Assembly (NCBI GenBank): GCA_052035095.1
Contig: JBPOHW010000004.1
Location: 23,527 to 87,526 of the forward strand
DNA: 64,000 nt
From: Candidatus Moraniibacteriota bacterium
Lineage (GTDB): Bacteria; Patescibacteriota; Minisyncoccia; Moranbacterales; UBA1568
Direction of reading: 5' to 3'
Shown here: piece by piece, positions 5,571 to 40,464 of the stretch
Numbering within the stretch: position 1 is the first letter of the stretch
How the letters are laid out: each line of letters opens with the position of its first letter
Notes under the pieces: generated by a model
Seen by the model: only the letters and a program-made list of their open reading frames with translations
The model's database searches: none
Told to the model about the DNA's origin: nothing
Position numbers and translations under genes: made by a program

Positions 5571-5585
5571 ATCTCTCTTTATTGT

Positions 5586-8797: not shown

Positions 8798-8844
8798 ATT
8801 TTTGATATTATACCAGCTTATTTTTAATCTCTGCTATCTTGTGA

Positions 8845-8939: not shown

Positions 8940-9017
8940 CGGTAGAAGTCTTTAGAGTAATTTAGTATCATTCGAAAAACTTTTTGTTATACGACTGCTC
9001 CGTGATATTGTAGATTC

Positions 9018-10292: not shown

Positions 10293-10308
10293 GAATGGGG
10301 AATGGAGA

Positions 10309-10977: not shown

Positions 10978-11161
10978 AACGTGAGCGTCATAGAGAGGAA
11001 GAATGAGGAATAAAGAATTAAGAATAAGGCAAAAATCGGAAACGAAAACGATTTTGTTTGAGGCTTAATTCCTGATTCCTTATTCCTGATTCCTTTTCAT
11101 CAATTCGCCGTCACGATGAAGATTCGGGCGGTGCGGAGTTTTTACAATCCATTGGGACTTT

Positions 11162-14100
11162 TTGGTTTTTTGGTGTATACTTTTGGAAGGCGAGAATTTT
11201 TTGGACGCTCGTGTGGGAGGGTATATATCAAAACACAATTCATTTCGTTCGCGACGGGCTCGCCGATATTTTTCGTGGCGGTCTGTTCGTCATTTGAAAC
11301 CGAAATATGTCGGATTTTCTTTGGTGTGCGCGCTTCTCGTTTCCGGCGCGTATTTGTTGTTCTCGGGGCAGATCCGGAGCATTTTTGCCGATGGAGAAAT
11401 TACCGAAACCTGGAACTTCGCGACGCCTGCGGAATACACGGCGTCTTCGGGGGTGACGGTTGACGGATCGAATACCGAGTCGCGGCTTTCGATAATGAAT
11501 TACGCAAGCGATACCGACACGATGGCGCTCTATCATTTCGATGAATCAAGCGGCGATACGGCGAGCGACGCTTCTTCCTATACCAATAACGCGTCAATCG
11601 CGACGGGAACGGGGAGCTTCGGCTCGGGGAGCCTCAATAATGCATTGACACTGAATGGCGCGACGACATTTGTCTCGGCGCCGGATATCGATGCAACGTC
11701 TCTGACGGGCAATTTTACGATAGAAGCGTGGACGAAATTTCCTTCGGGATTCTCGGATACGACGAGCCGGGTGCGAGAGGGGATACTCGATAAAGGCGCG
11801 TACAAGCTCTACTATGACAATGAAACCGGGAAGGTCGTCTTTGAACTCGAGCCGAATACGGTGGCGGCGGTGAACTGGACGCAGGTTGGCGGTCCGGATC
11901 TTCTCAATCAAAATGGCGCATCGCAAAATGTTGAGTTTAACCAAAGCTGGGACGCGAACAGCAAAAACTTCGTGTGGCGACAGGTGGTTGTCGGGAGTGA
12001 TATTTATGTGGCTCTGGGAAGTATAACGACGGGAGTGACCGTGACGGGTGACGCGGAAGTATGGAAGTGTACGGACTGCGCGACGAGCCCGGTGTGGTCC
12101 AAAATCGGTGGTGACGGGATCAATAGCAGTTGGGAAGACGGCACCTACGAAGATGCCTCGTCGCTCGTCTCGGATGGAACCAATCTCTATGCCGGTCTCG
12201 GGAATCGCTCCGCCGAGGCGGAAGTGTGGCGGTTCAAAAGCGGGTCGTGGTCCAAGATAGGTGGCGACGGCACGAACTCGAGTTGGCTTACAACGACACC
12301 GGGTCCCTATGAGCGCGTGACGAGCATGGTGGCGGATGGAACGACGGTGTACGCGGGGCTTGGAACGACGGCGGGCGATGCCGAAGTCTGGAAATGTACA
12401 AGTTGCGATGGCGGGAGCCCGTCGTGGTCCAAGGTGGGCGGTGATGGAACGGGATCGGGCGGGCAGAGCTGGACGACATCGACCTATGAAGAGGTAGCGG
12501 CGCTTGCGATTGTGAATGGGACGACGCTTGCGGTGGGACTTGGGACGGGCGGTGGCGACGGCGAACTTTGGACCTGCGCAACCTCGAGTTGTACCGTGAC
12601 GTCGGGCTGGACGAAGCGTGGTGGCGACGCGTCCGGTTCGGGCGGGCAGTCATGGACCAATGCCTATGATGAGGTTCGCGCGATTACCTCGAACGGAACC
12701 GTGATATATGTCGGTATCGGCGTTTCAACAACGGAAGCGGAAGTGTGGCGGTGTGATATTGGCGGGACATGCACGACGACCTCGGGATGGACTAAGGTAG
12801 GCGGTGACGGAACGGGATCGAGTTGGAATACGAATTATGAGCGTGTCTGGTCGCTCCTTGCGAACGGAACCACGGTCTATGCCGGTATCGGCGATGGTGC
12901 GGGCGATGCCGAAGTCTGGAAATGTACAAGTTGCGATGGCGGGAGTCCGTCGTGGTCGCAGATTGGCGGCGATGGAAATGGAAATCCGCCGCAGTCATGG
13001 GGAAATCAGACCGGAGCGTCGTTTTATTACGCCTCAAGTCTCGCTCTTATCGGAACGAATATCTTCATCGGGGCGTCGAGTGCGGCCGGGACGAGCGGCG
13101 CCGAAGTGTGGCGGTGCGATACGAGTGGGACCTGCAGTAATACCGCTGGGTGGACGCGGATTGCCGGGCAATACCTCAACAAAAGTTGGGGCGCGTTCAA
13201 TCTCAATAGCATCGAATCCATGGCGGTTTCAGATGGGAAACTTTATGCGGGTATGGGGTATGATACGGGAGCGGCGACATCAAACGGCAATGCGATGGTG
13301 TGGGAATTCGATGGGACGAATTGGACGATGATCGGCGGGCAAGGGATAAATAGCTCGTGGACGTATGGACATCCGTCGATTTCGACCTCTACCTATCGAG
13401 CGGTAACGTCGATGACGGGGTATAAAGGAGGTCTCTTCGTCGGTTTGGGCGGATCAACCAATGGCGATGCGGAAGTGTGGCGTTGGAACGGGACGGTCTG
13501 GTCCAAGGTGGGCGGGGATAGCGATGCGTCGGGCGACAATTCGTGGGCGGCAGGGACGAAGCGGTCGGTGCCCGCAATGATCACGATCGGCGATAAGCTC
13601 TATATCGGACTCCAGGGAACGGCGGCGGGCGATGGCGAGCTTTGGTCGTGCGATCTTTCGGGCACCTGTGATACGACGAATGGCTGGACATTTTTGGGTG
13701 GCGACGCGACTGGTGCCGGCGGGCAGTCATGGGCGACGACGGGGCACGCGGCAGTGTGGAGCATGACGTCTCGTGGGACGAATATTTATGTCGGGTTGGG
13801 ATCGAGTACGAATTATGCCGATGTGTGGACCGCCGATACGGCGACGTGTACGCGAACGACCGGTTGGACAAAAATCGGCGGTGGCGGAACGAATTCAAGT
13901 TGGAATACGAGTTACGAAGAGGTGACGGCGCTCACCTGGTATCGCAATGAACTTTATGCGGGACTTGGCGCGAGCGCGGGCGACGCGGAGGTGTGGAAGT
14001 GGAATGGGGCGAGCTGGGGTGGGACGGCAATTGCCGGCGATGGGTTGAATGATAGCTGGGAAGATCTTCTGTATGAACGAGTCCGTTCGCTCAAGAGTTT

Positions 14101-17100
14101 TAACGGTAATCTTATTGTCGGGCTGGGCGATAGCGCCGGTGAGGGCGAGGTGTGGCAGTATGACACGAGTACCTGGACCAAAATCGGCGGTGATGGCGCT
14201 CGTTCCGGATGGACGAATGTGATTGAACGGCTCGGGGCGCTCGCGGCGTATCGCGGGAAGCTCTATGCCGGCGTCGGACTTACGGCAAATAGCGACGCGA
14301 CCGTGTGGGCGTATGGAAACAATGAAATCGTCGAGTCGTCGGCGACGAGTCAGGATTCCGACTGGCATCATATCGCCGTGACCTCGAACGGCTCGACGCT
14401 TCGAATGTATATTGACGGGACCGAAGTGGATAGCGAGAGTCTCTCCGGGTCTCTCGCTAACACGGCGCACCCCTTGGTTCTTGGAGGACTTGCGGGCGGC
14501 GGGCAATATACCGGCGCGGCGCCGGGAATATTAAACGGGAGTATCGATGAAATTCGTATCAGTGATACGGTGCGCGCGTCGTTTCAGACAACGCCGTATT
14601 CGAGTAGCTACGAAACCGTCGAGCTTTCAGATCCGGTACATACCTCCGGGGTTGAGAAGTGGGATTCGTTTGCGGCGAACGAAGACGCGCCGGGGGATAT
14701 CACCTATCGTCTCTCGGATAATGGGGGCTCAACCTGGAAATATTGGAACAGTTCCGCGTGGGTAGCTTCGTCGGGCTTCGGGGAAGCGAATCCGGTCGCG
14801 ACGGTGAATACGAATATCCCGACCTTTCCGGTCTCAACGGGTGGACTGGTGTGGCAGGCAATTCTCCTTGGAAATGGCGATGAGGTCGTGAAGCTTAACT
14901 CGGTGGATCTCGTCGCGACCGAGGATCTTGTGGCGCCCGCATGGCCCGGGAGCCCGACACTCATTGCGAAGAATCAGTCCGGCGGGACGACCGATCTCAC
15001 GACGGCGACGTGGTACACCTATTCGGCGCCCTACTTCGAGTGGTCGGCGGCGACGGATACGGACGGATCGGGAGTGATCGGATACTATGTATGCTTCAGT
15101 TCTCCGGCGTGCTCCGATCCGGTGACCGATGGCGATTTCCAAGTGGGGAATAGCTACACGGCGACGACCGACACGAGTGGCGCGGCGCTGGTCTCGGGAC
15201 AGAAGTACACGCTCTCGGTCAAAGCGAAAGACAACGCGCAGAACACGAGTGTGCTTTTTACCATCCCCTTTGTCTACTGGCTCGATTCGACGGTGCCCAC
15301 TGATCCCGTGGGTGGTGTCACGGCGGCGCCCGCGGTGTATTCTCCCGACGACGACTTTTCTTTTCTCTGGAATGCGGCGGTTGACGGGAATGGCAATCCG
15401 GCGACCAACTCGATGATTGCCGGCTATCAGTATCAGATTGCCGATACCCCGGTCGTCGACGGGTGGTCGGCGACCATCACCGAAACGCAGATTGATATTG
15501 TTGACGCCGCATATCGAACCGGCGAGAACTCTTTCTATCTCCGGACGATTGACAATGCCGGCAATGTCACGGACGGTACGGAGCGAGTCAGGTTTTATTA
15601 TGCCGGTTCGGGACCGACGGAGCCGCGGAATTTGCAGGCGATACCGGAGAGTAATACCGCAAACTCCTTCGCTTTCAGTTGGGATCCGCCGTCTTCTTTT
15701 TCGGGTGATCCGGAGGATCTCACGTATTGCTATACCGTGAACACCGTTCCGACCGAAGATGCCTGCACCTTTACGACCGCCGGTATCGAATCGATCGCCG
15801 CTTCCGCCTTTGCGACCCAGCATGACAATCTTTTCTACGTGGTCGCGAAGAATCCGGAGGATTTGGGCGGGACCATCAACTATGGCGCGTACACGAGTGT
15901 TCCATTTACCGCCAATACGAGCGCACCTGGCATTCCGCTCAATATCGATATCGCCGATGTGTCGGTCAAGAATACCGAATCGTGGAAACTCGCGATCTCA
16001 TGGGAAGAGCCGTCCGATATCGGCTCCGGCGTCGACTCGTATCAGATCTATCACGCCGAGAGCGAGGGCGGGACCTATTCCAAAGTCGCGTCGACGAGCG
16101 GTATCGCGTTTGTCGACACGGGACTTGAGCAGATCACGCACTACTATAAGGTGCGCGCCTGCGATGATGTCAATAACTGCGGTGCCTACAGCGAAGTGGT
16201 ATCGCTCTATCCGACGGGGAAGTACACGGAGCCGGCGACGATTGGCTCGGGTCCCACGGTTTCTCTCATTACCACCAAGAGTGCGACGATCAGTTGGTCT
16301 ACGAATCGCACGTCCGACAGTAAGGTACAGTACGGGAAGAGTTCCGGAACCTATTATTCGGAAGAGCCGAGCAATTCGGAACAGGTGACGGATCACGTGA
16401 TCAAACTCTCAAACCTTTCGCCCGGCACGACCTATCACTATCGCGCGCGTTGGACGGATGAGGATGGGAATACGGGTGTCTCGGGCGAGAAATCGTTTAA
16501 GACTGATCCCGCGCCGACCGTTGTCGACCCCAAGGCGAAGAGTGTGGGGCTTTCGAGCGCCATTCTCGAGTTTACCGCGAAGGGCGCGAGCAAAGTGAAA
16601 ATTTATTACGGCCTCACGGAAGCCTTCGGACTTGTGAAAGAAGTCGCGACCTCCGAAGCCGAGACGACCTATACGACGAGTATTGAGGACCTGCTCGACG
16701 GGACGAAATATTTCTACAAAATCAACACCGTGGACAGCGAGGCGGAAGAATATGAGGGGAATACACTTTCTTTCGAGACGCTCCCGCGTCCCAAAATCGA
16801 AGAGGTGAAGATACAACAGGTGAAGGGAACGGCGCAAACGGTACTCCTCATTTCGTGGAAAACCAATACCGAGACGTCGTCCATCGTCTCCTATGTTCCC
16901 GATGGGAATACCGGCGAGGCGAAAGACGAAGTGGACGTGAAGATGGTGAAGGGCGAGCACAAGATGTTGATCAAAAATCTCTTGCCGCAGACGGGATATA
17001 CGTTGACCGTGAAGGGTCGGGATAATTTCGGGAATGAAGCGAGTTCCGAGCCGCTACGCTTTACCACGGCGACCGATACGCGCGCGCCGCAAATTATCGA

Positions 17101-17455
17101 CGCCAATGTCGAAGGACTTATCGTAAAAACGAATGAAGGAAGCGAGGGCGAGCCGGAGGCACAGCTCATTGTGACGTGGACGACGGATGAGTCGGCGACG
17201 GCGCAGGTCGAGTATGGCGAGGGAACCGGCTCTTCCTATCCGCAGAAGACGCAGGAAGACGCCGCGCTCGTATCGAATCATACGGTCGTCATTTCCAAAC
17301 TCTCGCCGTCAAAAGTTTATCATCTCCGTATTCTCTCCAAGGACAAGGCGGGCAATGTGGGGCAGTCCATCGATATCGTTTCCATTACGCCCAAAGCGAC
17401 CGAAAACGCGCTCGACATCGTATTCTCAAGTCTCAAATCCATTTTTGGAAAGTAG
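11162..17455 (+). CDS. Giant (~2100 aa) membrane-anchored cell-surface protein: N-terminal signal-anchor, ~15 tandem ~50-aa propeller-like repeats, LamG/concanavalin-like domain, multiple FN3-like domains
   Basis: Single uninterrupted ORF. The track start at 11162 is a TTG; the in-frame TTG at 11294 gives a classic KPK-hydrophobic signal-anchor and is more plausible. Repeats match W-x-K-[IV]-G-G-D-G...Y-E-x-V...G-T-x-[LV]-Y-[AV]-G-[LI]-G...G-D-A-E-V-W (Kelch/propeller-like). LamG-like segment: DWHHIAVTSNGSTLRMYIDGTEVDS. The C-terminal half is FN3-like beta-sandwiches (e.g. ATISWSTNRTSDSKVQYGKSSG...TTYHYRARWTDEDGN). Confidence 0.7.
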   Translation: MVFWCILLEGENFLDARVGGYISKHNSFRSRRARRYFSWRSVRHLKPKYVGFSLVCALLVSGAYLLFSGQIRSIFADGEITETWNFATPAEYTASSGVTVDGSNTESRLSIMNYASDTDTMALYHFDESSGDTASDASSYTNNASIATGTGSFGSGSLNNALTLNGATTFVSAPDIDATSLTGNFTIEAWTKFPSGFSDTTSRVREGILDKGAYKLYYDNETGKVVFELEPNTVAAVNWTQVGGPDLLNQNGASQNVEFNQSWDANSKNFVWRQVVVGSDIYVALGSITTGVTVTGDAEVWKCTDCATSPVWSKIGGDGINSSWEDGTYEDASSLVSDGTNLYAGLGNRSAEAEVWRFKSGSWSKIGGDGTNSSWLTTTPGPYERVTSMVADGTTVYAGLGTTAGDAEVWKCTSCDGGSPSWSKVGGDGTGSGGQSWTTSTYEEVAALAIVNGTTLAVGLGTGGGDGELWTCATSSCTVTSGWTKRGGDASGSGGQSWTNAYDEVRAITSNGTVIYVGIGVSTTEAEVWRCDIGGTCTTTSGWTKVGGDGTGSSWNTNYERVWSLLANGTTVYAGIGDGAGDAEVWKCTSCDGGSPSWSQIGGDGNGNPPQSWGNQTGASFYYASSLALIGTNIFIGASSAAGTSGAEVWRCDTSGTCSNTAGWTRIAGQYLNKSWGAFNLNSIESMAVSDGKLYAGMGYDTGAATSNGNAMVWEFDGTNWTMIGGQGINSSWTYGHPSISTSTYRAVTSMTGYKGGLFVGLGGSTNGDAEVWRWNGTVWSKVGGDSDASGDNSWAAGTKRSVPAMITIGDKLYIGLQGTAAGDGELWSCDLSGTCDTTNGWTFLGGDATGAGGQSWATTGHAAVWSMTSRGTNIYVGLGSSTNYADVWTADTATCTRTTGWTKIGGGGTNSSWNTSYEEVTALTWYRNELYAGLGASAGDAEVWKWNGASWGGTAIAGDGLNDSWEDLLYERVRSLKSFNGNLIVGLGDSAGEGEVWQYDTSTWTKIGGDGARSGWTNVIERLGALAAYRGKLYAGVGLTANSDATVWAYGNNEIVESSATSQDSDWHHIAVTSNGSTLRMYIDGTEVDSESLSGSLANTAHPLVLGGLAGGGQYTGAAPGILNGSIDEIRISDTVRASFQTTPYSSSYETVELSDPVHTSGVEKWDSFAANEDAPGDITYRLSDNGGSTWKYWNSSAWVASSGFGEANPVATVNTNIPTFPVSTGGLVWQAILLGNGDEVVKLNSVDLVATEDLVAPAWPGSPTLIAKNQSGGTTDLTTATWYTYSAPYFEWSAATDTDGSGVIGYYVCFSSPACSDPVTDGDFQVGNSYTATTDTSGAALVSGQKYTLSVKAKDNAQNTSVLFTIPFVYWLDSTVPTDPVGGVTAAPAVYSPDDDFSFLWNAAVDGNGNPATNSMIAGYQYQIADTPVVDGWSATITETQIDIVDAAYRTGENSFYLRTIDNAGNVTDGTERVRFYYAGSGPTEPRNLQAIPESNTANSFAFSWDPPSSFSGDPEDLTYCYTVNTVPTEDACTFTTAGIESIAASAFATQHDNLFYVVAKNPEDLGGTINYGAYTSVPFTANTSAPGIPLNIDIADVSVKNTESWKLAISWEEPSDIGSGVDSYQIYHAESEGGTYSKVASTSGIAFVDTGLEQITHYYKVRACDDVNNCGAYSEVVSLYPTGKYTEPATIGSGPTVSLITTKSATISWSTNRTSDSKVQYGKSSGTYYSEEPSNSEQVTDHVIKLSNLSPGTTYHYRARWTDEDGNTGVSGEKSFKTDPAPTVVDPKAKSVGLSSAILEFTAKGASKVKIYYGLTEAFGLVKEVATSEAETTYTTSIEDLLDGTKYFYKINTVDSEAEEYEGNTLSFETLPRPKIEEVKIQQVKGTAQTVLLISWKTNTETSSIVSYVPDGNTGEAKDEVDVKMVKGEHKMLIKNLLPQTGYTLTVKGRDNFGNEASSEPLRFTTATDTRAPQIIDANVEGLIVKTNEGSEGEPEAQLIVTWTTDESATAQVEYGEGTGSSYPQKTQEDAALVSNHTVVISKLSPSKVYHLRILSKDKAGNVGQSIDIVSITPKATENALDIVFSSLKSIFGK

Positions 17456-29345: not shown

Positions 29346-32300
29346 CTATGATGATGAAGAATTTCGATTTTTTCTCTTTATCATCGAAACGAGAATCGGG
29401 ATGATGAGGAGGGTGAAGAAGGAGGAGACGGCGAGGCCGAAGATGATGGCGGTGCCGAGGGCGCGCCAGAGCGCGTCGGAGAGGGTGATGGGGACGAGAC
29501 CGAGAATGGTGGAGAAGGACGTGATGAAGATTGCCTCGATGCGGGATTTTCCGGCATCGATGATGCCTTCGGTATATTCGAGACCACTTTCCCAGTTGAG
29601 GTTTATTTTGTCAATGAGGATGATCGCGTTTTTGACGACGATGCCGAAGAGGGCGAGGATGCCGATGAGTCCCGGGAAGGAGAGGGGGACGCCGAAGATT
29701 GCCATCCCGACAAAGACGCCGATCATGGCGAGGGGGAGTGTGGCGAGGACGATCACTGCTTGCGTGACGGAATTGAATTGGATGATGAGGGTTGCCACGA
29801 TGAGGATGATCGCGATGACGAGCGCGTTCAGGATAGATTGCACGGATTCTTGATTTTGCTCGTTCTCGCCGCCGTAGGTGATTGAATAGCCGTCGGGGAG
29901 TCGGTATTCTCCCGCTACTTTCTCTTGGAAAGCGGAGAGGACTTCGTTGGGGCGCGTGCCGGTTTCGACGCCGGAAGAGAGGAGGACGGATCGTTTCTGG
30001 TCGATGCGTGTGATCGATTCGAGCGAGGGCTTGAGCTCGATCGTGGCGAGCTCGCCGAGTCGGACGGTAGCTCCTCTGGCGTTTTTGAATTCGATATTTC
30101 GCACCTCGTCGAGGGTCGGGATTGTGGCGTCATCGAAACGAGCGACGACACTGATTTCGTCGTTGTCGCGGAGGACGGTAGTGATTTCGGTGCCGGAAAT
30201 CGCCATACGAAGCGCGCTTCCGATACCGGTCGCGTCGAGTCCGAAGTAGGCGAGGCGGTTATGGTCGAGGGAGAAGGTATAGTCGGCGGGCGCATTCTTG
30301 AGCGAGGTGCTGATGTTCGTCGTTCCGGGGATATTCGCGAGAATTTGTTTGAGATCGCCGGCGATGCGTTCTATTTCTCGGAGGTCGTCTCCGGAAATTC
30401 GCGCTTCGAAGGATGCGCCTGACGGAGGACCGCCCGCCAAACTGGCAACTCGAATATCGGCGCCGGAAATGGTTTTGAAATCTTCGCGCATTCTGTCGGC
30501 GAGCTCGAAGGAGGTGCGGTTCCGATCGTGTTTGTCGGAGAGCTTGACGGTGATTCCGGCGAGGTGTGAGGCGTTCCCGCCGACGCCTCCCGTTCCATCT
30601 TGGGACGCGCCGGCATTGCCGACTACGGTGGAAAAGTCCACGATTTCCGGATAGCCCAAGAGTCTTTCCTCGACTTTTTGAATGAGGCGGTTGGTTTCTT
30701 CGAGCTTCAAACCCGTCGGCGCTTCGAGGTTGACGAAGATGAGTTCTTCATCGGAGGGCGGGAAGAATTCGGTTGGCACGATACCGAAAACGGGAAGGAG
30801 TACGGCGCCAATGAAAAGCGCGAACGTCCCAAGAAGCACGGTCCATTTCCGTCGCGCGCTCGCAAGGACGCCTCGGAGGAACTTTTCGTAGGGTGGGATG
30901 ATGTGATCGAAGTGAATGACGCCGTGAATGAGGCGATCCTTCCAGGCTGTGTCTTCGCGATTTCCCGCCTCTTTGAGGCGCGCCTTGATGAGTGCGTCGC
31001 TTTCCCATTCGCGCTCGACCAAGGATGTGTTGTTGGTAAGAATGCGATTTCCGTTTTTGAAAAAGAACCAGAGCGCGAGACGAACAATGAGGATAAGCGC
31101 GACTCCCGCAAGCGACGCGCCCCAGATATTTTTTAAGAAAATGCCGTACGCGATAATTCCCGCCAGAGTCGCCAGCGAAATGAAGAACCAGTTTCGCGTG
31201 AAGCGAACGCGCTCGAGGGCGGCGGCGAGCGGATGATTGATCATAAGCGCGATACCGAGCGAGGCGATGAGGGTGACCGTGACGGTGATCGGGATGGATT
31301 TGATGAATTGCCCGATGATGCCGGTCGCGAGAAGGAGCGGCAGGAACGCCCACACGGTGGTGAGGGTTGTCGTTGTGAGGACGACCTTGAAATCACGCAG
31401 AACGAGGAGGACGGCTTCTTCCGGTGTGAATTTGCCGGTACGGAGATATTGCTTGGTCGCGGAGACGACGACGATCGCGTCATCTACAAGGAGTCCCATC
31501 GAGAGGAGGAGGGAAAAGAGCGAGAGGAAGTTCAAGGAAATGCCCGAGAGGAGCATGGTGCCAAATGTAACGAAGAAGACGAGTGGAATGGTCATACCGG
31601 CGATGATCGCCTCTTTGAGTCCCACGACCAAGAACAGTGTCGTCATCACGAGTCCCACGGTGATAAAGAAGTCGCGCGTGAGTTCATCGAAATTCTTGCG
31701 AATCTCTTTGGCGAAATCGACGGTGACGGTCCACTGTGTTTCCGGGGGGAAATTTTCCGACAGGCGTTCCATGGTGCGATTTGCCTCATCAACCGTTTCG
31801 ATGATGTTGCCGCCGGTTCGTTTCACGATGTCGAGGGTGACGGCGTTTTCGGGAGCGGAGCCGTTGATCGAAAGCCTCGAAAGAATCGTGCGTTTTCTGG
31901 CAATTTCTTCAACTTCCGCGATGTCTCGAAGGAGTACGGCGCCGCCGTTTTCGTAGAATCGAATGGGAATATTTCCGAGTTCTTCGGCGGTGAAGAAGCG
32001 GGCGTCGGTACGGAGGGGGTAGGAGAATCGCGCGCCGTCCTTGGCGCCCGCGGGAATGGCGCGATTGGTCGCGGCGATCGCGCGGTTTGCTTCGTCGGCG
32101 GAGATGCCGAGCGCGGAGAGTTTCGCCGGGTCGTAGGAAACGGAAATTTCCCGTTCGTCGCCGCCGGAGACGCGCACTTCGCGGACGCCCTGAATTTTTT
32201 CAAGCTCGTCTTTGGCGCTATCGGCGAGGTCGCGAAGAGCGAGTCCGTTGAGCGAACCCGAGAGGGCGATGGTAAGAATCGGTTGATCATCGAAAGAAAT

Positions 32301-32765
32301 TTCTTTGACGGATGGATCCTCAGCGTCATCCGGCAATTCGCTTTTGATTTCCGAAACGGCATCGCGGAGGCGGCGGATGGCGTCGTCGAGGGGTTCGCTC
32401 GCTTCGTATTCGACCGTGATCGCGGAGAGGGAATTCGCGGAATTCGAAGTGATTTTCTTGATGCCGGAGAGTCCGGCTATTTTCGTCTCTATTTTTTTGG
32501 TGACGAGCTCCTCGACGTCTCCCGGAGAAGCGCCCGGGAAGGGGGTCGCGACAATGGCGATCGGAATTTTGACTTCCGGATTGGATTCGCGCGGGAGCTT
32601 TCCAAACGACCAGAGTCCCCAGAGGGAAATGCCGGCAATGAGGAGGAGGACGACGCGCGGGCGCGTGACGAAAAAGTTGAACGCGCTTTTCCTGAGCTTC
32701 GGATCGAATTCGAGCTTTTCCAAATATTCGGAATCGGAAGAGGGATTGTTGGATTTTGGATTCAT
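29346..32765 (-). CDS. RND-family efflux transporter permease (AcrB/HAE1-like, 12 TM)
   Basis: 1139 aa with the characteristic AcrB architecture, two large periplasmic loops, and conserved TM4/TM10 regions. The ATG is at 32765. Confidence 0.85.
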   Translation of the reverse strand: MNPKSNNPSSDSEYLEKLEFDPKLRKSAFNFFVTRPRVVLLLIAGISLWGLWSFGKLPRESNPEVKIPIAIVATPFPGASPGDVEELVTKKIETKIAGLSGIKKITSNSANSLSAITVEYEASEPLDDAIRRLRDAVSEIKSELPDDAEDPSVKEISFDDQPILTIALSGSLNGLALRDLADSAKDELEKIQGVREVRVSGGDEREISVSYDPAKLSALGISADEANRAIAATNRAIPAGAKDGARFSYPLRTDARFFTAEELGNIPIRFYENGGAVLLRDIAEVEEIARKRTILSRLSINGSAPENAVTLDIVKRTGGNIIETVDEANRTMERLSENFPPETQWTVTVDFAKEIRKNFDELTRDFFITVGLVMTTLFLVVGLKEAIIAGMTIPLVFFVTFGTMLLSGISLNFLSLFSLLLSMGLLVDDAIVVVSATKQYLRTGKFTPEEAVLLVLRDFKVVLTTTTLTTVWAFLPLLLATGIIGQFIKSIPITVTVTLIASLGIALMINHPLAAALERVRFTRNWFFISLATLAGIIAYGIFLKNIWGASLAGVALILIVRLALWFFFKNGNRILTNNTSLVEREWESDALIKARLKEAGNREDTAWKDRLIHGVIHFDHIIPPYEKFLRGVLASARRKWTVLLGTFALFIGAVLLPVFGIVPTEFFPPSDEELIFVNLEAPTGLKLEETNRLIQKVEERLLGYPEIVDFSTVVGNAGASQDGTGGVGGNASHLAGITVKLSDKHDRNRTSFELADRMREDFKTISGADIRVASLAGGPPSGASFEARISGDDLREIERIAGDLKQILANIPGTTNISTSLKNAPADYTFSLDHNRLAYFGLDATGIGSALRMAISGTEITTVLRDNDEISVVARFDDATIPTLDEVRNIEFKNARGATVRLGELATIELKPSLESITRIDQKRSVLLSSGVETGTRPNEVLSAFQEKVAGEYRLPDGYSITYGGENEQNQESVQSILNALVIAIILIVATLIIQFNSVTQAVIVLATLPLAMIGVFVGMAIFGVPLSFPGLIGILALFGIVVKNAIILIDKINLNWESGLEYTEGIIDAGKSRIEAIFITSFSTILGLVPITLSDALWRALGTAIIFGLAVSSFFTLLIIPILVSMIKRKNRNSSSS

Positions 32766-32792
32766 GGGAAATTGTTACTTGTTTGATCTACA

Positions 32793-32979
32793 AAGAAATT
32801 TTGTATTCGGCACGTTCAAGAAATGCTCCGGGGCTTGGTAGTAGCGTCTGTTGGTTTTGGATGGAAATAACCTCCCAAAGAAGCTTTCGTTTGTGGTTTT
32901 CGTAGGTCTGCCCGCCGCTGCGTTAATTTCTTTCTCCCTGCCTTGCCGGCAGACAGGTTAGCCGAATACAAAATTTCTT
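32793..32979. ncRNA. Candidate structured RNA / non-autonomous element, copy A (conserved core closed by a 19-bp perfect stem)
   Basis: Arms aagaaattttgtattcggc / gccgaatacaaaatttctt enclose a core (acgttcaagaaatgctccggggcttggtag...tgatggaaataacctcccaaagaagctttcg) that is ~85% identical to 40316..40400. The arms differ from those of copy B yet remain perfectly complementary (covariation). Strand undetermined. Confidence 0.4.
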
Positions 32980-32992
32980 CTTTTGTACTTCT

Positions 32993-34075
32993 TTATTCTT
33001 CGGATATCTTCATTCCATCCTCGAGTGTCCCCGTGCTTTCTATGATGACAGCGGCGTTTTCCGGAATATCGGCGGAGACGATGCCGGTTTCGCCGGAGAC
33101 GATGATGGAGGTGGCGGATATTTTCTTGGCTTTTTCGTTTTCCGCTACGAAGAAGAACGAGCCCTCTTGGTTGGTGGTGATGGCGGAGAGGGGGAGGAAG
33201 AATGAGGAGGCTTCAGATGCGATTTGGCGAATTTCTATGATGGCGCTCCCGATGGTGCCGGAGGGGATGGAGTCTTTTTCGAGGCGCGCCTCAATGGGGA
33301 ATTTGCCGGTTGCCGGATCGGCGTGCGCGGCGATTGAGGTGACGTGTGCCGTTTTCTCCCGGTTTTCTTGGAGGAGGATTCGCACGGAATCACCAATCGC
33401 GAGCGAGTCGCGAACGCGTTCCGATACTTGGAAGCGCGCCTTTGGAGCGCTTCCTGTGGCGATCTTCGCGAGCATGGTGCCCGGCGTGACGGAGCTTCCG
33501 ACGTTGACGTATTTTTCCGAGATGATGCCGGAGAGAGGCGCGCGGACGGTGGAAGCATCGAGCGCATTGGCGAGGGCTATCTCGGCTTCTTCGAGACGGA
33601 GTCGCGCGAGGTCGCGGTCGAGATAACTCTCTTTGTTGGTGTTCTTCTCGGCGAGGCGTTTCGCTTCTTTGTAGGATTTCCGCGCGGAAGAGACGGCGAT
33701 TTCGGCTTGTCGAATCGCTTCCGATCGGATGCCGCTCTTTGAGAGTATGGAACCGTTGGGATCGGTGATGCGGACGAGTGTGGCGCCCTGCCTGATAGAA
33801 CTTCCCACCTCGAAGCTTGCCGAGGCTATCGTGCCGGAAGTTTCCGCCGTGATCACGGTTTCATTGTCGGCGACAATGACGACGGGGAGACGTTCTTCGG
33901 ACGTTATGCTTTTCAAATCGCCCGCTTTTTTGACCGAGACTTCGAGGGCACGCTCGTCCGCTCCCGCTTCACTCGGTGTTTGTGCGGATTCGTTTTTCCT
34001 TGCGGCAAAGTACCAAAGACCGAAGAGTCCGAGGAGTATAGCCGCGAGAATGAGCGCTGTTTTGGTGCGTATCAT
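32993..34075 (-). CDS. RND efflux periplasmic adaptor (membrane fusion protein, HlyD/AcrA-like)
   Basis: N-terminal TM anchor, coiled-coil hairpin region (RLRLEEAEIALANA...), and beta-barrel/MP domains. Lies upstream of the RND permease on the same strand. Confidence 0.8.
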   Translation of the reverse strand: MIRTKTALILAAILLGLFGLWYFAARKNESAQTPSEAGADERALEVSVKKAGDLKSITSEERLPVVIVADNETVITAETSGTIASASFEVGSSIRQGATLVRITDPNGSILSKSGIRSEAIRQAEIAVSSARKSYKEAKRLAEKNTNKESYLDRDLARLRLEEAEIALANALDASTVRAPLSGIISEKYVNVGSSVTPGTMLAKIATGSAPKARFQVSERVRDSLAIGDSVRILLQENREKTAHVTSIAAHADPATGKFPIEARLEKDSIPSGTIGSAIIEIRQIASEASSFFLPLSAITTNQEGSFFFVAENEKAKKISATSIIVSGETGIVSADIPENAAVIIESTGTLEDGMKISEE

Positions 34076-34171
34076 AGGGAATTGTATTCAAATGAGCAAT
34101 TCGTCAATTTTCCTTGAAAAAGAGAGAGATGTCAAGGCTTGTGGGAAGGATTTTTCTGTGTCAACATTGAA

Positions 34172-37024
34172 ATGTTTCCTGATTTGGTACAAATAGAGCA
34201 TTTTATGGGGATGTTGTGGAAGTTTCTTCGGATGTATTGGGAAGAATGCGCCCTTCTGGTGGCGCTTGTTTTTGCTGTGGGAATTCTTTTGATTCCACAA
34301 AGAACTATTCTTTATTTCTCTTGGCTGTACGTGTCTTTTGTGGCCATTGGTATTGTTTATTCTGTGCGGAAGAAGTTTCAAGAAAGCGTGAAAGAAGCAG
34401 AATGGGGAGAACAAAAAAGACGAAAAGATTCGCCAACATCAATTTTTCTTGATGATAAAGAAATAGAGGATGAAAAACATGATGTTCTTGGCATTGCGGA
34501 AGATGCCAAGCATTTCGGGGAACAGGTTTTGAATGGCGGCGCCGATAATGCCATGATTTTTGGTTTGGATGCGGCGTGGGGGAGTGGGAAGTCGAGTTTT
34601 CTCAACCTCTCTAAGAAACAGGTTTGGGAAACAAAAGAAAACAAAGAAAAGGTTGCGGTCTTTACTTTTCGACCGATACTTTTTGACGCGCGCAAACAGG
34701 ATATTGCGGAGATTTTTATTCGCGAGTTTTTTTCTTTTCTCAAGGAGGAAAGAATGCTTTCCAGAAGGTTGGAAAGCGATAGATGGAAACTTGTGCGCTT
34801 AATAAGTGATGTTTCGATGGGAGGCGATCTTTTTGGTATACGATTTCGCGTTCCTCAAGAATCTTTGGATGAAGTACTCGAGCGAATTCGAAATGAAATC
34901 AAAAAGCTTCCCAAGAAGATCATTGTCATTGTTGACGATCTCGACCGATTGTATGTGGAAGAAGTGAAGGCGATTCTCGGTGTGGTGCGAAATATCTTTT
35001 TTATTCCAAAGATTACTTTTGTTCTGTGCTACGACACGAGCAATATCAATAGTTTTGAATTTCAGAAAAAAGTGGTTCACACCGAATCCGAATCATACGC
35101 CACCTCAAAAGATGATGATGTCAAAAGAAAATTGTATTCTCGTGCTGATCACGAACCCGATAGCCAAAGAATAAACGCCTATCTCGAGAAAATTGTGCAG
35201 GTCAAAAAAACGCTCATTCCCGATAGGGATAAGCTATGGAATTTTTTCGAAAAGAAAGTGAGGGACTATTTTTCCGATGCAGACCTCGTGAATTGCGAGA
35301 CTTTTATTGAAGGAATCAAACCTTTTTTTCAAGAGGAATGCTATCCAAAGTATGCCCCCTACTTGGGGGATATCCGGAAAATAAAAAGAATTCTCAACTT
35401 TATTCGTATTTCCAGATTTCTCAAGTTAATGAAAAAAGACATGCGTGGTCGAGATATTAGTTCGAAATATCTTTTTCAGTTTATTTTGATATATATCAAT
35501 TACCCGCACATTTTTCGAAAAATTTATATTGAGGAAACAAGCGGATCCTCGGGATTCTTTTCTGTTATTTATTGTGATAAGGATAAAGAAGATTGTACTC
35601 CTGCGGGTTTCAAGAATTCGTCACAGTTTCTTGATTTTCTCAAGACGGTTTCTGAAGAACAGAGATTTTTGCTTGAAGAATTATTTCGTGTGCCGATATT
35701 TGATAAATCTGAAATTTTTGAGAGAAGGCAATACGAGGAAGAAATGGAGAAGCCTAAATTTCAGAGATATTCCCCCCTTTTTAATGGGGGATACTTTTCT
35801 CGGATAAACCTGAGGGATTATCTCGAGATTGTTTATGAGGGAAAGTCTATTGACATTTGGTTGCATGATAATTTTCATATCAATAAAATTAAGGAATTGG
35901 AAAATCGGAGTGTTCAAGACATATTTAATGCAACGCCGGAGTATGGTGCGGATATTGGTGAAAAATCTCGCGATATGTTTTTTGGAAAATTGCGGACTAA
36001 AGACGTTCCATTTTCTTCCGCTGAAAAGGTCATCGAATATATCACTCACAATTTGTCTCATTATTCGATGATCAGCGAATTTTCGGGAGTGTATGAGGGA
36101 ATTCGCGCTGGGCTGGTATATCGATTGCTATGGATGCTCGAGCTTCGAGGGTGGGAGGATGAAAAGAGGGAATCATACGAAAATACCGATGAGAATATCC
36201 GAGTTCTCGCGGAGAAAATTTTGGGGAATGAGCAATATCCATCACTGGTGAATACACTTTTTGATTCTGGCGGCAACCCGATTCTCGCGGTCAATGATGC
36301 GACCAAACTCATATACGCGTGCACTGGTACAAGATCAAGTTCTCTTTTCAATGTTCGCCGATCACTTGAAAACTATGCCAAAGAACATTCGATCGATGTG
36401 ATGGAGGCTCTGTCGCGAAAAGCATTTTTGTTTTTCCATAAGCGCATCATTTCCGAGAAGAAGAATTTTCTTCGGGATATCGCCGATATGGACGAGGCGC
36501 TTCTCTTGGGTGATTTCTCGGAGGCTATTTGGAAAAAATTTGAGGAAAAGAAAGATGGTCTTGAAGAGGAGGTGGCAAAAATAAAAAACAGCCTTGCTTC
36601 CGCGCTCTTGTTTCGGTTTGCGCGCGATGAGGAGCGATCAATGGGGAAGTATCTCTTTGATGATACGAAGAAAATATCGGAAGTTATGCGAGAGTATCTT
36701 CTTGAGATATGTTTCAACGTTGATGCGGATATGCGAAACGCGGAACTTTTTCTGAATTTCGCACTAGCGTCTTTCGGCGATGAATCAACCGGGTTTCAAG
36801 AGTGGGTTCCGGATGTTTCTCTTTTGGAAAAAACCCTCGGTCCTGATCGTTTGCGGAGCTATTGGCTGGAGAGGGGCGAAGTCATCAAAAAATGCGGGCG
36901 CTCGCTCGCACTCGCCTCGCCGGATAAAAAAGTGGTGACGTATAACTATGTCGCCACCTACCGGAAAGACATGGAGAAACTTTTTGAGAAACTCGATGAG
37001 CGGTTTTTGAAGGAAGGAGAGTAG
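34172..37024 (+). CDS. KAP-family P-loop NTPase with N-terminal transmembrane segment and long C-terminal region (~950 aa); AT-rich gene
   Basis: KAP-type Walker A GLDAAWGSGKSSFLN. Walker B hhhhDDLDR (IIVIVDDLDRL). Two TM helices precede the P-loop. The start is uncertain: the track gives TTG 34139; ATGs occur at 34172, 34205 and 34211. GC is markedly lower than in the surrounding genes. Confidence 0.65.
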   Translation: MFPDLVQIEHFMGMLWKFLRMYWEECALLVALVFAVGILLIPQRTILYFSWLYVSFVAIGIVYSVRKKFQESVKEAEWGEQKRRKDSPTSIFLDDKEIEDEKHDVLGIAEDAKHFGEQVLNGGADNAMIFGLDAAWGSGKSSFLNLSKKQVWETKENKEKVAVFTFRPILFDARKQDIAEIFIREFFSFLKEERMLSRRLESDRWKLVRLISDVSMGGDLFGIRFRVPQESLDEVLERIRNEIKKLPKKIIVIVDDLDRLYVEEVKAILGVVRNIFFIPKITFVLCYDTSNINSFEFQKKVVHTESESYATSKDDDVKRKLYSRADHEPDSQRINAYLEKIVQVKKTLIPDRDKLWNFFEKKVRDYFSDADLVNCETFIEGIKPFFQEECYPKYAPYLGDIRKIKRILNFIRISRFLKLMKKDMRGRDISSKYLFQFILIYINYPHIFRKIYIEETSGSSGFFSVIYCDKDKEDCTPAGFKNSSQFLDFLKTVSEEQRFLLEELFRVPIFDKSEIFERRQYEEEMEKPKFQRYSPLFNGGYFSRINLRDYLEIVYEGKSIDIWLHDNFHINKIKELENRSVQDIFNATPEYGADIGEKSRDMFFGKLRTKDVPFSSAEKVIEYITHNLSHYSMISEFSGVYEGIRAGLVYRLLWMLELRGWEDEKRESYENTDENIRVLAEKILGNEQYPSLVNTLFDSGGNPILAVNDATKLIYACTGTRSSSLFNVRRSLENYAKEHSIDVMEALSRKAFLFFHKRIISEKKNFLRDIADMDEALLLGDFSEAIWKKFEEKKDGLEEEVAKIKNSLASALLFRFARDEERSMGKYLFDDTKKISEVMREYLLEICFNVDADMRNAELFLNFALASFGDESTGFQEWVPDVSLLEKTLGPDRLRSYWLERGEVIKKCGRSLALASPDKKVVTYNYVATYRKDMEKLFEKLDERFLKEGE

Positions 37025-37147
37025 TCAACTTTCTAATTTTTCGAAGTATAGGGGTACTTTCTCATGTTGAGAACGGAGCGGGTTTCCATTGACATTCAAT
37101 TGGCTTTTGTTTTAGTATCGTTTCAGGTAAAGAGGAGGTGAAGTGTC

Positions 37148-37468
37148 ATGTCGAAACAAGAAGATGTGCGTGTGCGGGTTAAGATAGATGGCGATATCAG
37201 AGAGGCTCTTGAAAATATTTGCGGAGAGGAGTTCACGCGAGTATTTGAAAAGACCGCTTCGGATGCGGCCGCAGTGTTCGTCCGCGGGTTAATTGCGTCT
37301 CTTTTGGAAAGCGCTCTTGCTCACAGGAGGGAGGGTTCGGACTCGGACATAGTTCAAGGTATGATTGATAGATATCGTTTAGTTGCGCTTGCGATGACAA
37401 CTTCATCGGAGTCTGTCACTCCTCATGGGGCAGTATCGGGACGCGAGTATGATCGTCGACTTTCTTGA
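37148..37468 (+). CDS. Small acidic hypothetical protein (106 aa)
   Basis: Strong SD AGAGGAGGTGAAG before the ATG. No recognisable family. Confidence 0.5.
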   Translation: MSKQEDVRVRVKIDGDIREALENICGEEFTRVFEKTASDAAAVFVRGLIASLLESALAHRREGSDSDIVQGMIDRYRLVALAMTTSSESVTPHGAVSGREYDRRLS

Positions 37469-37547
37469 AATTCGAACTTTCAATGGGATCAAAGAGATAA
37501 AAAGAAACTGACATTTCCCTCCACAGAAAATTGCGGAGGGAATTTTA

Positions 37548-37883
37548 TTGTCAGAATGTCGTTATCTTTTAGAAAGGAATATGCCTTCCAAACAATTTCA
37601 AAAGCGCGTTGAGGATTTTGTGTGTGGGCACTGCGGAGCGACGGTTTCCGGGAATGGCTATACCAATCACTGCTCGAAGTGTCTCTGGAGTCTCCACGTG
37701 GATATTTTCCCGGGCGATCGCGCCGCGCGGTGCGGGGGATTGATGGAACCGGTCGGGGCGTTTCTCGATCATGGGGAATGGCGCCTCACACACCGGTGCG
37801 TCACCTGTGGACACGCGAAAAAAAATCGCCTCTCAAATGAGGACGATATGGAGATGCTTTCGAAACTATTCGAAGGGAAATAA
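37548..37883 (+). CDS. RNHCP-domain zinc-ribbon protein (111 aa)
   Basis: Cys clusters CGHCG...NHCSKC...RCGG...CVTCGH; the YTNHCSKC motif matches the R-N-H-C-P family signature. The TTG start has a GGAGGG SD 8 nt upstream. A terminator-like hairpin (ccctcaaagaaaag/cttttctttgaggg) follows. Confidence 0.5.
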   Translation: MSECRYLLERNMPSKQFQKRVEDFVCGHCGATVSGNGYTNHCSKCLWSLHVDIFPGDRAARCGGLMEPVGAFLDHGEWRLTHRCVTCGHAKKNRLSNEDDMEMLSKLFEGK

Positions 37884-38611
37884 AAAGCCCTCAAAGAAAA
37901 GTATGGCTTGGGGAAGCTTTTCTTTGAGGGAGGAGGTCACGGTGCTGCGGCCTCTTGCTTGGTGGCTTCACGAGCTCTTCAGTGATTGCCGGTTTGGCGA
38001 TGTGAAGTTTATGCTCATGAAGCCAGTGTGAATAACAACGTCTCGGAGACTTTCCAAGAGAAGGGGGATTTTTTTAATCCATTTTCCCCATCCTTCTTTG
38101 GAGAGTTTTTCTATGAAAATAACCTGTATCTCCGAGACGTATCCCTTTTGGGTTTCCGAAGTTTCGAAAACCCGGAATTGGTCGGGCGGTTATGAGCCAC
38201 GCTTCGCGCTTTTGGCTGCGTGGTATTGCGAATCCATAACCGCCCTTAATACTGCGCGAGGAATATGTCGTTGGGGTTGGGAACCCCGTTCCTCGTTTAT
38301 CGATCGAGTTTCTGTTACCAGAGTTTTTATTTTGAGTCGCTACCCTGGCGAGCGACTGATCCGGCCAAATTATGTCGTGCCGTTGTAACGCTTCATAAAG
38401 GGGATCCTTTGCGTCGTTTGACGACGAAGTAGATCGTGTTTTTCGAACTCGACAAACAAGTTATGCTATATCGAGGTATCGAAATTCCTTGTGCCGTCGG
38501 CTTTCCTAAATCGTTCGCATGTTGTCATGCAAACTTTTCTGTTTTCGCTCGCCGCTACTTACAGGATTCAGACTTTCTTTCGGCATTGTTAAGGAACCTC
38601 TTAAACATTTT

Positions 38612-39880
38612 CTACACTTCTTTTGTTTCCGTGTCAAGCGGGAGGGGATTTCGCCACTGCCAGGGGTGATTTGGCACTTTGAAAAATTCGGCGTTGTCGG
38701 GTGCGCTTTTTTCGAGTTTGTAGCGGAGAGACTGAACCGTTTTCCCTCGGGGGTCGCGGAGTTCGAGGTATTGGCGAGTGTTACCGAGAGTGAAGGCAGC
38801 GTATTTCGCGGTGAGTTTTTTTGAGGCGCCGGGTTTGATGACGAAGTCTTTGGTGATGGTGTGATTGACGAATTTCTTGGTCGTGCGTTTGGATTTGGTC
38901 GCGATTTTCCAGCCTTTCAAATTCACTTCTTTTTTGGAGCGATTTTCGATAACGAGGTATTCGTTTTTCGTGTCTTTTCCTTCGGGATTGGGGACGAGGG
39001 AAGTGACGCGGACTTTTGGCGCTTCATATTTTTTAATCTCGACGCGAAAGGTTTTGGTAATATCGGCGATGCCGTCGGTCGCGGTTAGGGTCACCGTGTA
39101 GCGTCCCTTCTTCGTGAAGGTGTGCGAAGTTTCTTTTATGTAGCTTCTGTGCCCATCGCCGAAATTCCAAGTAACCTTGGTTGGGTCGCGATCAAGGTCG
39201 GTGACTTTGGTCGAGAAGGAGAGGGGGATGCCGACGAAGCCTTGTTTTGGAATCTTGGTTTTCGTCGACGGGTCATTGCCGAAACGATTGATCTCGCCGG
39301 GTGTGAGGAATTTGGTGTTGCGCCACCGCGTGCCGTCTCGGGCGAGAGTGATGTTTTCGCGCGCGGTTTTCCAAGAAACGGAGTCTCTTGCGGCGTCGCA
39401 TGAATCTTCGAGCGTGACGGTTTCCGCGGTATTGTTCATCGCAAAAGTAAATTCGGTACGAAAGATGACCAGGAACGCGCCGGCGGAGATGGTTGTCCGC
39501 GTCGGAAACGAAAATTTTCCGGTTTTGGAGGCGTCACGAAGCGTCCATCCGGAGATATCGATGTCGTTTTCGCTTGTATTTTCGAGCTCGATGAACTCGC
39601 CTCGCGACTCATCTCCCGTTGGATTCGCCAGTACTTCGGAGAGGAGGATACGATGAATGGTGTTTCCGCACCGCTCTTGGTTATCTTGATTCTCTGCCCG
39701 GGATATTGCCGGGGACGCAAGTGCGATCGTTCCGAGGAGAAGGAATGCGGTCGCTCGTATTTGAATGTGTCGTACCAATTGTATGGAGAATTTCGGTTGG
39801 TGAGGCTGAGACATAGGAGAGTTCGGTGAAATGCGGATGATTCGGGACTTCGGCATTTTTACTGTGCGGGATAGTAGCAC
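38612..39880 (-). CDS. Secreted LTD–PKD–LTD protein (two lamin-tail domains flanking a PKD domain)
   Basis: Signal peptide (RATAFLLLGTIALASPAISRA). LTD motif ILLSEVLANPTGDESRGEFIELENTSENDIDISGWTL. PKD VTWNFGDGHRSYIKETSHTFTKKGRYTVTLTATDG. Second LTD VTSLVPNPEGKDTKNEYLVIENRS...LKGWKI. The start is uncertain (GTG 39880, or ATG 39856 / 39814). Confidence 0.65.
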   Translation of the reverse strand: MLLSRTVKMPKSRIIRISPNSPMSQPHQPKFSIQLVRHIQIRATAFLLLGTIALASPAISRAENQDNQERCGNTIHRILLSEVLANPTGDESRGEFIELENTSENDIDISGWTLRDASKTGKFSFPTRTTISAGAFLVIFRTEFTFAMNNTAETVTLEDSCDAARDSVSWKTARENITLARDGTRWRNTKFLTPGEINRFGNDPSTKTKIPKQGFVGIPLSFSTKVTDLDRDPTKVTWNFGDGHRSYIKETSHTFTKKGRYTVTLTATDGIADITKTFRVEIKKYEAPKVRVTSLVPNPEGKDTKNEYLVIENRSKKEVNLKGWKIATKSKRTTKKFVNHTITKDFVIKPGASKKLTAKYAAFTLGNTRQYLELRDPRGKTVQSLRYKLEKSAPDNAEFFKVPNHPWQWRNPLPLDTETKEV

Positions 39881-40295: not shown

Positions 40296-40464
40296 TCCGA
40301 ACTTTCGTATTTGTCACGTTCAGGAAATAGCTTCGGAGCTTGGTAGGTGAGTTTTTTCGTTACTGATGGAAATAACCTCCCAAAGAAACTTTCGCTTCAA
40401 GTATATTTGAGTTTGCTCGCTCCTCCGTGTATTTCCTTCTCTTAGACAAATACGAAAGTTCGGA
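40296..40464. ncRNA. Candidate structured RNA / non-autonomous element, copy B (conserved core closed by a 20-bp perfect stem)
   Basis: Arms tccgaactttcgtatttgtc / gacaaatacgaaagttcgga. Core shares acgttcaRgaaatRgcttcggRgcttggtag...tgatggaaataacctcccaaagaaRctttcg with copy A. Confidence 0.4.

Follow-up and report, generated by a model that had tools for sequence, protein, structure and literature searches.

Proteins that combine transmembrane (TM) segments, a P-loop NTPase of the KAP family and a C-terminal region of unknown nature were recently reported to protect Enterococcus faecalis from phages (PMC13552941, PLoS Biol 2026). The validated members of this class are EF_KAP and three KAP proteins from gut metagenomes, and protection by EF_KAP, which is not abortive, depends on both the aspartates of Walker B and the C-terminal region (PMC13552941). 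Two other systems act at the membrane: PifA causes membrane depolarisation and nucleotide leakage upon T7 infection, and Tmn, an unrelated membrane P-loop NTPase that acts alone, senses the T2 protein RIIB and exports Mg2+ (PMC13001434). As quoted in later papers, KAP NTPases were proposed to regulate the assembly of complexes on their own alpha-superhelical domains; the passages of secondary sources that place the canonical KAP TM helices disagree on their position. Here we describe a gene for a 937-amino-acid (aa) KAP-family NTPase in a stretch of 64,000 nucleotides from Candidatus Moraniibacteriota bacterium (contig JBPOHW010000004.1), which was analysed as a whole and is referred to below as the window. 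Judging from the names on the best homologues, the chromosome belongs to a Moranbacteria-like lineage of the Patescibacteria. The gene lies on a strain-specific insert, and its product is a candidate single-protein defence.

We compared the window with three metagenome contigs (L084–L086) that are syntenic with it, are 97–99.9% identical to it over this region and carry neither the KAP gene nor the 106-aa open reading frame (ORF) that follows it. The gene order BipA, Wzy-like, RND, HlyD, RNHCP, LTD/PKD, amidase, tRNA synthetase, Bro-N and M16 peptidase is shared by all four sequences. By blastn, the DNA of the sister contigs matches the window at 98–99.9% up to position 34143 and again from position 37581, and the alignment of the junctions showed that 3,437 bp of the window (34144–37580) stand in place of 40 bp of the empty site. 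The AT-rich segment bearing the KAP gene was accordingly acquired horizontally, as the empty site in the sister genomes shows directly; a preliminary description of this DNA had suspected as much from base composition, and had also correctly placed the gene between an RND operon (HlyD/RND) and an LTD/PKD gene, both of which are on the minus strand. In the sister contigs, RNHCP begins ~105 bp after HlyD. Two more distant relatives (L087 and L088, with ~74% identical DNA and a 72% identical RNHCP protein) likewise have RNHCP directly after HlyD, and because this adjacency is shared, the empty state is ancestral and the window lineage gained the segment.

The left junction is exact (34143/34144), and the right junction lies between ~37550 and 37580. 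Since the final ~30 bp upstream of the RNHCP ATG are similar to the RNHCP leader of the more distant L087, the true right end is probably ~37550, directly after the terminator of the insert itself, which gives a segment of ~3.4 kb (34144–37550) to which no strand is assigned. We found no target-site duplication, flanking direct repeats or terminal inverted repeats at the insert and no integrase or tRNA nearby, and neither a 24-mer taken from within the 106-aa ORF nor a protein scan for close relatives in JGI metagenome contigs brought up another copy of the island. The GC content of the KAP gene is 41.0% (43% at third codon positions, GC3), compared with 52–57% (GC3, 60–70%) for its neighbours, and the resulting trough is pronounced relative to all other windows of equal size (z = -4.7). 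The low GC content noted in the preliminary description is thus real for the KAP gene, to which the trough is confined; it does not extend to RNHCP (53.8% GC).

Identity between the window and L084 forms a mosaic along the whole region (84–100% in 500-bp bins), which is consistent with recombination breakpoints. It reaches 100% to the left of the insert (33000–33999) and only ~95% over ~2 kb to its right (37581–39500), and the island was possibly delivered together with right-flank DNA of a diverged conspecific donor. A second variable spot was observed between RNHCP and LTD/PKD (38190–38610), with ~420 bp in the window versus ~94 bp in L084 and L085; part of it (about 38370–38450) is 79% similar to L087 and L088, and its ORFs belong to no recognisable family. 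In addition, the RND transporter gene, intact in the window and in L085 and L086, is missing ~800 bp of its 5' part in L084 (window positions 32003–32798), and the RND protein as called measures 826 aa in L084 versus 1,139 aa in the window. This gap is either another strain-level indel or an assembly difference.

The longest ORF covering the KAP gene extends from 34139 to 37024 on the plus strand. Because its TTG start codon at 34139 sits in resident DNA to the left of the insertion junction, the real start must lie inside the insert. The ATG at 34211 is the start that matches a 100% identical database protein of 937 aa (P0001, sourced from NCBI), and we therefore delimited the gene as 34211–37024 (+); alternative in-frame starts exist at 34205 and 34172. 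The product was assigned from its sequence to the KAP family by the Pfam profile KAP_NTPase (PF07693), which matched residues 136–424 over profile positions 18–288 of 293 (E = 5.2e-29; 101.9 bits against a cut-off of 20). The Walker A (GLDAAWGSGKS, 34562–34594) and Walker B (IIVIVDDLDRL, 34919–34951) motifs, on which the preliminary description had based the same identification, were verified by translation. Across 17 diverse homologues, G124, G126, K127 and D242–R246 are invariant, and invariant positions continue along the alignment (Walker A, DDLDR, a CYD strand, EK...K and GDxRKxKRxxN), with ~25 also in the C-terminal half, so that conservation spans the whole length. In the window protein the reading frame is intact and every invariant residue of the family is kept, including the C-terminal motifs.

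Three parts can be distinguished in the protein. At the N-terminus, a hydrophobic hairpin of two predicted TM helices (WEECALLVALVFAVGILLI and TILYFSWLYVSFVAIGIVY) is followed by a Lys/Arg-rich stretch (34238–34360, +). The two segments, predicted from hydropathy (Kyte-Doolittle peaks of 2.26 and 1.77), are the only 19-residue hydrophobic windows upstream of the NTPase, the sole other such window being a beta-strand just after Walker B, and they agree with the two TM helices announced in the preliminary description. The KAP NTPase module proper (residues 81–443; 34451–35539, +) contains Walker A, the Walker B DDLDR and a helix motif GDIRKIKRxxN. The remainder (residues 444–937; 35540–37021, +) is predicted to be an all-alpha solenoid of ~494 aa resembling HEAT/ARM repeats; an unassigned C-terminal part of ~650 aa had been described, and the correct figure is ~500 aa. 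The AlphaFold2 (AF2) predictions were confident, with a predicted local distance difference test score (pLDDT) of 81.8 and a predicted template modelling score (pTM) of 0.68 for the full length, and values of 88.6 and 0.82, respectively, for the C-terminal domain; in the full-length model, long helices occupy residues 2–27 and 29–72. The modelled NTPase fold is closest to RdrA, and to the Cdc6/ORC and STAND NTPases, and the modelled fold is similar to a solved KAP NTPase, while no enzyme-like match was obtained for the modelled solenoid. When the C-terminal 494 residues alone were searched against 1.84 billion cluster representatives, only 167 proteins matched; the full-length ones matched at the C-terminal end of proteins of ~900–1,100 aa, and the short ones look like fragments. 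Because this search found only the C-terminal ends of such KAP proteins and apparent fragments, the HEAT-like solenoid is, by sequence, exclusive to this KAP subfamily, and we propose that it may serve as a sensor or scaffold.

We next considered the subfamily as a whole. A total of 476 full-length homologues (E <= 1e-3; ~900–1,070 aa, covering ~90% of the query) were found. Patescibacteria of many classes carry them, as do Paenibacillus, Clostridium, Vallitalea, Pseudomonas, Burkholderiales, Methylophilaceae, Bdellovibrionales, Ignavibacteria and Spirochaetales, and four plasmids of Burkholderia glumae encode members as well; the subfamily is rare and patchily distributed. Among 118 full-length members, 115 have N-terminal TM-like segments, mostly three or four compared with two in the window protein, whereas the stretch from Walker A to Walker B is free of hydrophobic segments in all 118. 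In pairwise comparisons of members, the NTPase is on average 41% identical, the solenoid 34% and the TM region 19%. The closest homologues form one cluster at 64% identity (L090–L094), and those at 41–44% identity are located after rpoD/dnaG or amid unrelated genes. In L090, a block of four genes (5512–11365), encoding Fic, two unknown proteins of 305 and 269 aa and the KAP protein, lies between two MacB/FtsX paralogues as a separate small island.

The GC content of the KAP homologue was lower than that of its ±10-kb flanks in all 73 loci with enough flanking DNA (mean difference -9 points, largest -24; Wilcoxon test, P = 1e-13). Neighbouring genes were analysed in 83 loci, in which ORFs were called mechanically. 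Neither all-against-all clustering of these ORFs nor inspection of the downstream ORFs revealed a conserved partner gene; what lies downstream of the KAP homologues varies, and often the very next gene is encoded on the opposite strand. The recurrent families were large serine recombinases (15 loci), ParB-N6/N4 methylases (9 loci), terminase large subunits (4 loci) and type III Mod and Res (4 loci). Among the 137 ORFs immediately flanking the KAP genes, the most frequent Pfam families were Resolvase (6), Recombinase (5), Mrr_cat (3), ResIII (3), C5 methylase (2), N6/N4 methylase (2), Type I S subunit (2) and ApaLI (1), and a PADLOC scan agreed. In the 102 ORFs used as a control, which lie 6.5 kb or more from the KAP gene, the recurrent families were generic (ABC transporters, EamA, Cupin and AAA), with ResIII in two ORFs.

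Four of the loci, from Patescibacteria/Saccharibacteria (L011, L022, L025 and L055), share a particular arrangement, in which an ORF of 431–443 aa that clusters with the large serine recombinases converges on the stop codon of the KAP gene (~12.6 kb in each locus). All four also have ParB-methylase genes within a few kb, and L022 and L025 have terminase genes. From this gene content, the KAP gene in these loci resembles cargo carried at the margin of an integrated phage-like element.

Within the insert, the KAP gene is followed by the 106-aa ORF (37148–37468, +), whose product is mildly acidic (isoelectric point, 5.4) and which is preceded by a strong Shine-Dalgarno sequence (AAGAGGAGGTGA), in agreement with the preliminary description. 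Upstream of it is a sigma-70-like promoter, TTGACA-18-TAGTAT (37089–37118, +), which is a pattern match only, with 10 of 12 consensus positions. Downstream, an intrinsic terminator (37515–37549, +), consisting of an 8-bp GC-rich stem and TTTTATT, closes the inserted transcription unit before RNHCP; its folding energy was -20.8 kcal/mol (z = -4.78), and none of 200 shuffled sequences was as stable. The GC3 of the ORF (43%) equals that of the KAP gene and is unlike that of the host, suggesting that the two probably arrived together. The only match to its product among 5.8 billion proteins was itself, and no match was found in Pfam, PADLOC, NCBIfam, PHROG or the PDB. The insert would hold one functional unit, the KAP NTPase, and then an orphan gene with a promoter-like site and a terminator of its own.

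These data bear on how many of the genes belong together. The preliminary description combined the KAP gene, the 106-aa ORF and the RNHCP zinc-ribbon gene (37581–37883, +; 100 aa) into one self-contained conflict cassette, and the three genes are indeed adjacent and co-directional, with a perfect 14-bp hairpin (37888–37930) after RNHCP that had been taken as the clean end of the unit. The identification of RNHCP itself was correct (Pfam, E = 2.8e-28), except that the protein has seven cysteines rather than four, together with six histidines and three CxxC pairs. However, RNHCP occupies the same position where the other two genes are absent: its 92% identical homologue (P0121) directly follows HlyD on L084–L086. 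Its GC3 (60%) is host-like, and the terminator between it and the 106-aa ORF, which had been overlooked, is stronger than the hairpin. The co-occurrence on which the preliminary description had made its cassette depend was not seen either, since tblastn (E <= 0.01; ±10 kb each, 1.4 Mb) located homologues of RNHCP or the 106-aa protein near 0 of 83 KAP loci, and neither small gene is beside the closest (64%) KAP homologue. Moreover, the 957 homologues of RNHCP, mostly from Patescibacteria, are 55–92% identical to it, unlike the KAP family (27–44%). RNHCP is a conserved gene of the resident chromosome; it predates the insertion and sits behind a separate terminator. A three-gene cassette is thus extremely improbable, and the KAP gene almost certainly represents a strain-specific single-gene insertion to which RNHCP is unrelated; this locus gives no ground for annotating RNHCP, on whose domain a full-text search turned up no biological literature, as defence-associated. 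A smaller module, in which the KAP protein needs the 106-aa protein as an antitoxin or inhibitor, a transcriptional regulator or an adaptor, would accord with their presence in the same insert, with their equal GC3, with the Shine-Dalgarno sequence, promoter-like site and terminator of the ORF, and with the pairing of pifA with the regulator pifC on the F plasmid; for a regulator in particular, the N-terminus of the 106-aa protein gives the visual impression, and only that, of a strand-helix-helix (ribbon-helix-helix) arrangement. Nevertheless, the ORF is without any homologue and without a family, fold or PDB match, and the family shows no conserved small gene downstream, even in the 64% homologue. 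Nothing in the sequences compared indicates a conserved functional partnership, and we regard such a module as quite improbable.

Strain-level presence and absence, a patchy phylogeny, AT-richness and recombinase or restriction-modification neighbours are the usual signature of defence genes. A defence role is plausible for the KAP gene because the family combines low GC content, patchy spread and recombinase, restriction-modification and prophage neighbours with an architecture whose anti-phage activity has been validated in published work, and the conflict role put forward in the preliminary description is in this respect retained for the KAP gene, although not for a three-gene module. Arguing from sequence and analogy, we consider that the gene probably encodes a horizontally acquired single-protein defence against phages or other mobile elements. 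Several observations weigh against this interpretation. Part of the low GC content is due to amino-acid composition (GC at second codon positions, 31%). The poorly conserved TM region would suit an anchor better than a specific channel, and the C-terminal domain, at 34% pairwise identity, is not hypervariable, unlike many immune sensors. Only one full-length member was found among the 2.9 million viral contigs of IMG/VR and none in cultured phages, so that the prophage link rests on about nine loci from the candidate phyla radiation (CPR). The excess of recombinase and restriction-modification genes among the immediate neighbours (~19 of 137, versus at least 3 of 102 in the control; Fisher's exact test, P ~0.003) involves small numbers, crude ORF calling and a control count that is only a lower bound, and the enrichment of recombinases alone was not significant (P = 0.04–0.24). 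No further defence gene, and no recombinase, is recognisable in the 64-kb window, which is an ordinary chromosomal housekeeping context. Orthology with PifA also failed, as BLASTP and hhalign aligned only residues 82–443 to residues 14–367 of PifA. The gene might instead be mobile cargo with a non-immune role, its product being an NTPase that assembles or remodels a membrane complex and restricts phages only incidentally; the original KAP proposal, as later papers quote it, concerned membrane complexes that are built up and taken apart on alpha-superhelical surfaces in an NTP-dependent manner, PifA may primarily serve something other than phage restriction (PMC13552941), the alpha-solenoid has no enzymatic fold, and many of the KAP loci are in ordinary housekeeping contexts. 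The strain-level presence and absence, the patchy phylogeny, the universal AT-richness of the family and its recombinase and restriction-modification neighbours argue against this possibility, as does the protection against phage conferred by all four KAP fusion proteins tested (PMC13552941), and we judge it unlikely. The same holds for the particular roles that could be imagined, namely the maintenance of a mobile element, the exclusion of competing elements, or a cell-surface or episymbiont-host interaction in CPR bacteria. That the gene is a decaying, non-functional hitch-hiker, left over from a degraded mobile element, would explain why the insert has neither a recombinase nor terminal repeats and why the accompanying ORF is an orphan; given the intact 937-aa frame, in which all invariant residues from Walker A and B to the C-terminal motifs are retained, and the structure model, which is confident over the whole length, this is very improbable.

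If the protein is a defence, a possible mechanism can be outlined. The solenoid would provide a sensor or scaffold surface that binds a phage-derived, phage-altered or host protein; binding would switch the NTPase and drive oligomerisation, by analogy with RdrA, which forms heptameric rings; and the output would occur at the membrane, exerted either by the TM segments or by a partner or host factor that is recruited. This output might resemble the depolarisation and nucleotide leakage of PifA, the ion export and plasmolysis of Tmn or the non-abortive action of EF_KAP. The effector step is the weakest part of this sensor-switch-membrane model, which is doubtful in its specific form. In a broader formulation, the subfamily of ~170 clusters would be an undescribed, self-sufficient and membrane-resident immune receptor with NLR-like logic, in which the solenoid senses, the NTPase oligomerises as in RdrA and the TM helices deliver the output, and which spreads as a single gene across distant phyla as one of the few innate defences of CPR bacteria. 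We treat this formulation as a serious possibility, while leaning slightly against it. Patescibacteria have very small genomes, and their known immune repertoire is sparse.

Should the defence interpretation be correct, the validated class of single-protein KAP defences, which was proposed in 2004 and tested only in 2025–26, would gain a well-delimited and structurally modelled subfamily with a sensor-like solenoid, and it would be seen that such genes can travel alone, as naked islands of a single gene, and reach even Patescibacteria. Strains that are 97–99.9% identical over this region, with and without the gene, would then constitute an unusually clean natural 'knock-in' pair, and following them through metagenomic time series could show whether carriage of the gene tracks phage pressure. 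The empty-site result also corrects an operon inference that was attractive but wrong.

Some further features of the window were recorded. An intergenic element of ~150 nucleotides occurs twice in the same orientation (32795–32940 and 40299–40445), with ~75–80% identity between the copies. Both copies are kept in L084 (~8619–8760 and ~12526–12670) and L085, and one is kept in a ~74% identical relative (L087, 6595–6770). RNAalifold, applied to three sequences, gave -29.7 kcal/mol and six pairs with changes on both sides; Rfam and tRNA scans of the window, this element included, found nothing, and it could be an undescribed structured RNA or regulatory element. A giant ORF of 2,097 aa (11162–17455) contains laminin-G/ConA-like and fibronectin-III domains, and its product is probably a surface protein. 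The glycosyltransferase at the start of the window (137–1894) also matches the 'GT4-conflict' Pfam family.

Finally, we compared the protein with the described systems. It is a bona fide KAP-family NTPase, and its features place it outside the PifA, QatA, RdrA/RADAR and Tmn families. It differs from the STAND/NLR-type NTPases (Avs, bNACHT and Apaf-1/CED-4) in that its NTPase falls in the KAP rather than the STAND clade, nearer to RdrA and Cdc6/ORC, and in that its N-terminal module consists only of a TM hairpin. QatA, the KAP-like ATPase of QatABCD, shows weak similarity around Walker A and B (PADLOC, E = 1e-7); membership of that system was rejected, as the NCBIfam QatA model scored 29.8 bits against an equivalog cut-off of 600 and no QatB, QatC or QatD neighbours (QueC-like, TatD-like) were present. 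The similarity to RdrA, the ATPase of RADAR (PDB 8fnt, 8fnu and 8hr8), lies in the fold of the NTPase, with an overall TM-score (template modelling score) of only ~0.25; RdrA is soluble, whereas the window protein is predicted to be membrane-anchored, and neither a gene for the adenosine deaminase RdrB in the insert or its flanks nor a PADLOC match to RdrA at E <= 0.1 was found. Tmn is likewise a membrane-anchored P-loop NTPase acting alone, but it has no accessory domains, in contrast to the ~500-aa solenoid found here. Its two TM helices lie inside the P-loop domain, an arrangement seen in 0 of 118 members of the present family, and no PADLOC match to tmn was obtained, so that membership of Tmn/YobI was also rejected.

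PifA, which mediates T7 exclusion on the F plasmid and is the archetype of the KAP family, shares with the window protein a homologous NTPase module (hhalign probability 98.8; 25% identity) and the character of a single large protein acting at the membrane. The PADLOC PifA model matched the window protein in two stretches (E = 4.9e-28, 96 bits), the better of which covers profile positions 7–102 of 720, and because homology is confined to the NTPase module, this match reflects that shared module rather than orthology. Unlike the window protein, PifA has no TM helices; its C-terminal half (367–741) shows no similarity to residues 444–937; and pifA adjoins the repressor gene pifC on F, whereas the only neighbour within the insert is the orphan 106-aa ORF. 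The EF_KAP class differs in that EF_KAP has one TM helix inside the NTPase, compared with two N-terminal helices here, and a C-terminal region of 322 aa, compared with a HEAT-like solenoid of ~494 aa; the recombinases near the window protein's family are large rather than small serine recombinases, and the window protein occurs in CPR bacteria. Compared by described architecture, however, both join one or more membrane helices to a KAP NTPase whose Walker B contains DD and to a large C-terminal region without a known domain. Both are encoded by stand-alone genes, and some members of the family are linked to serine recombinases and mobile DNA. On this basis, the window protein fits the recently described class in which a KAP NTPase is fused to C-terminal regions of diverse kinds.

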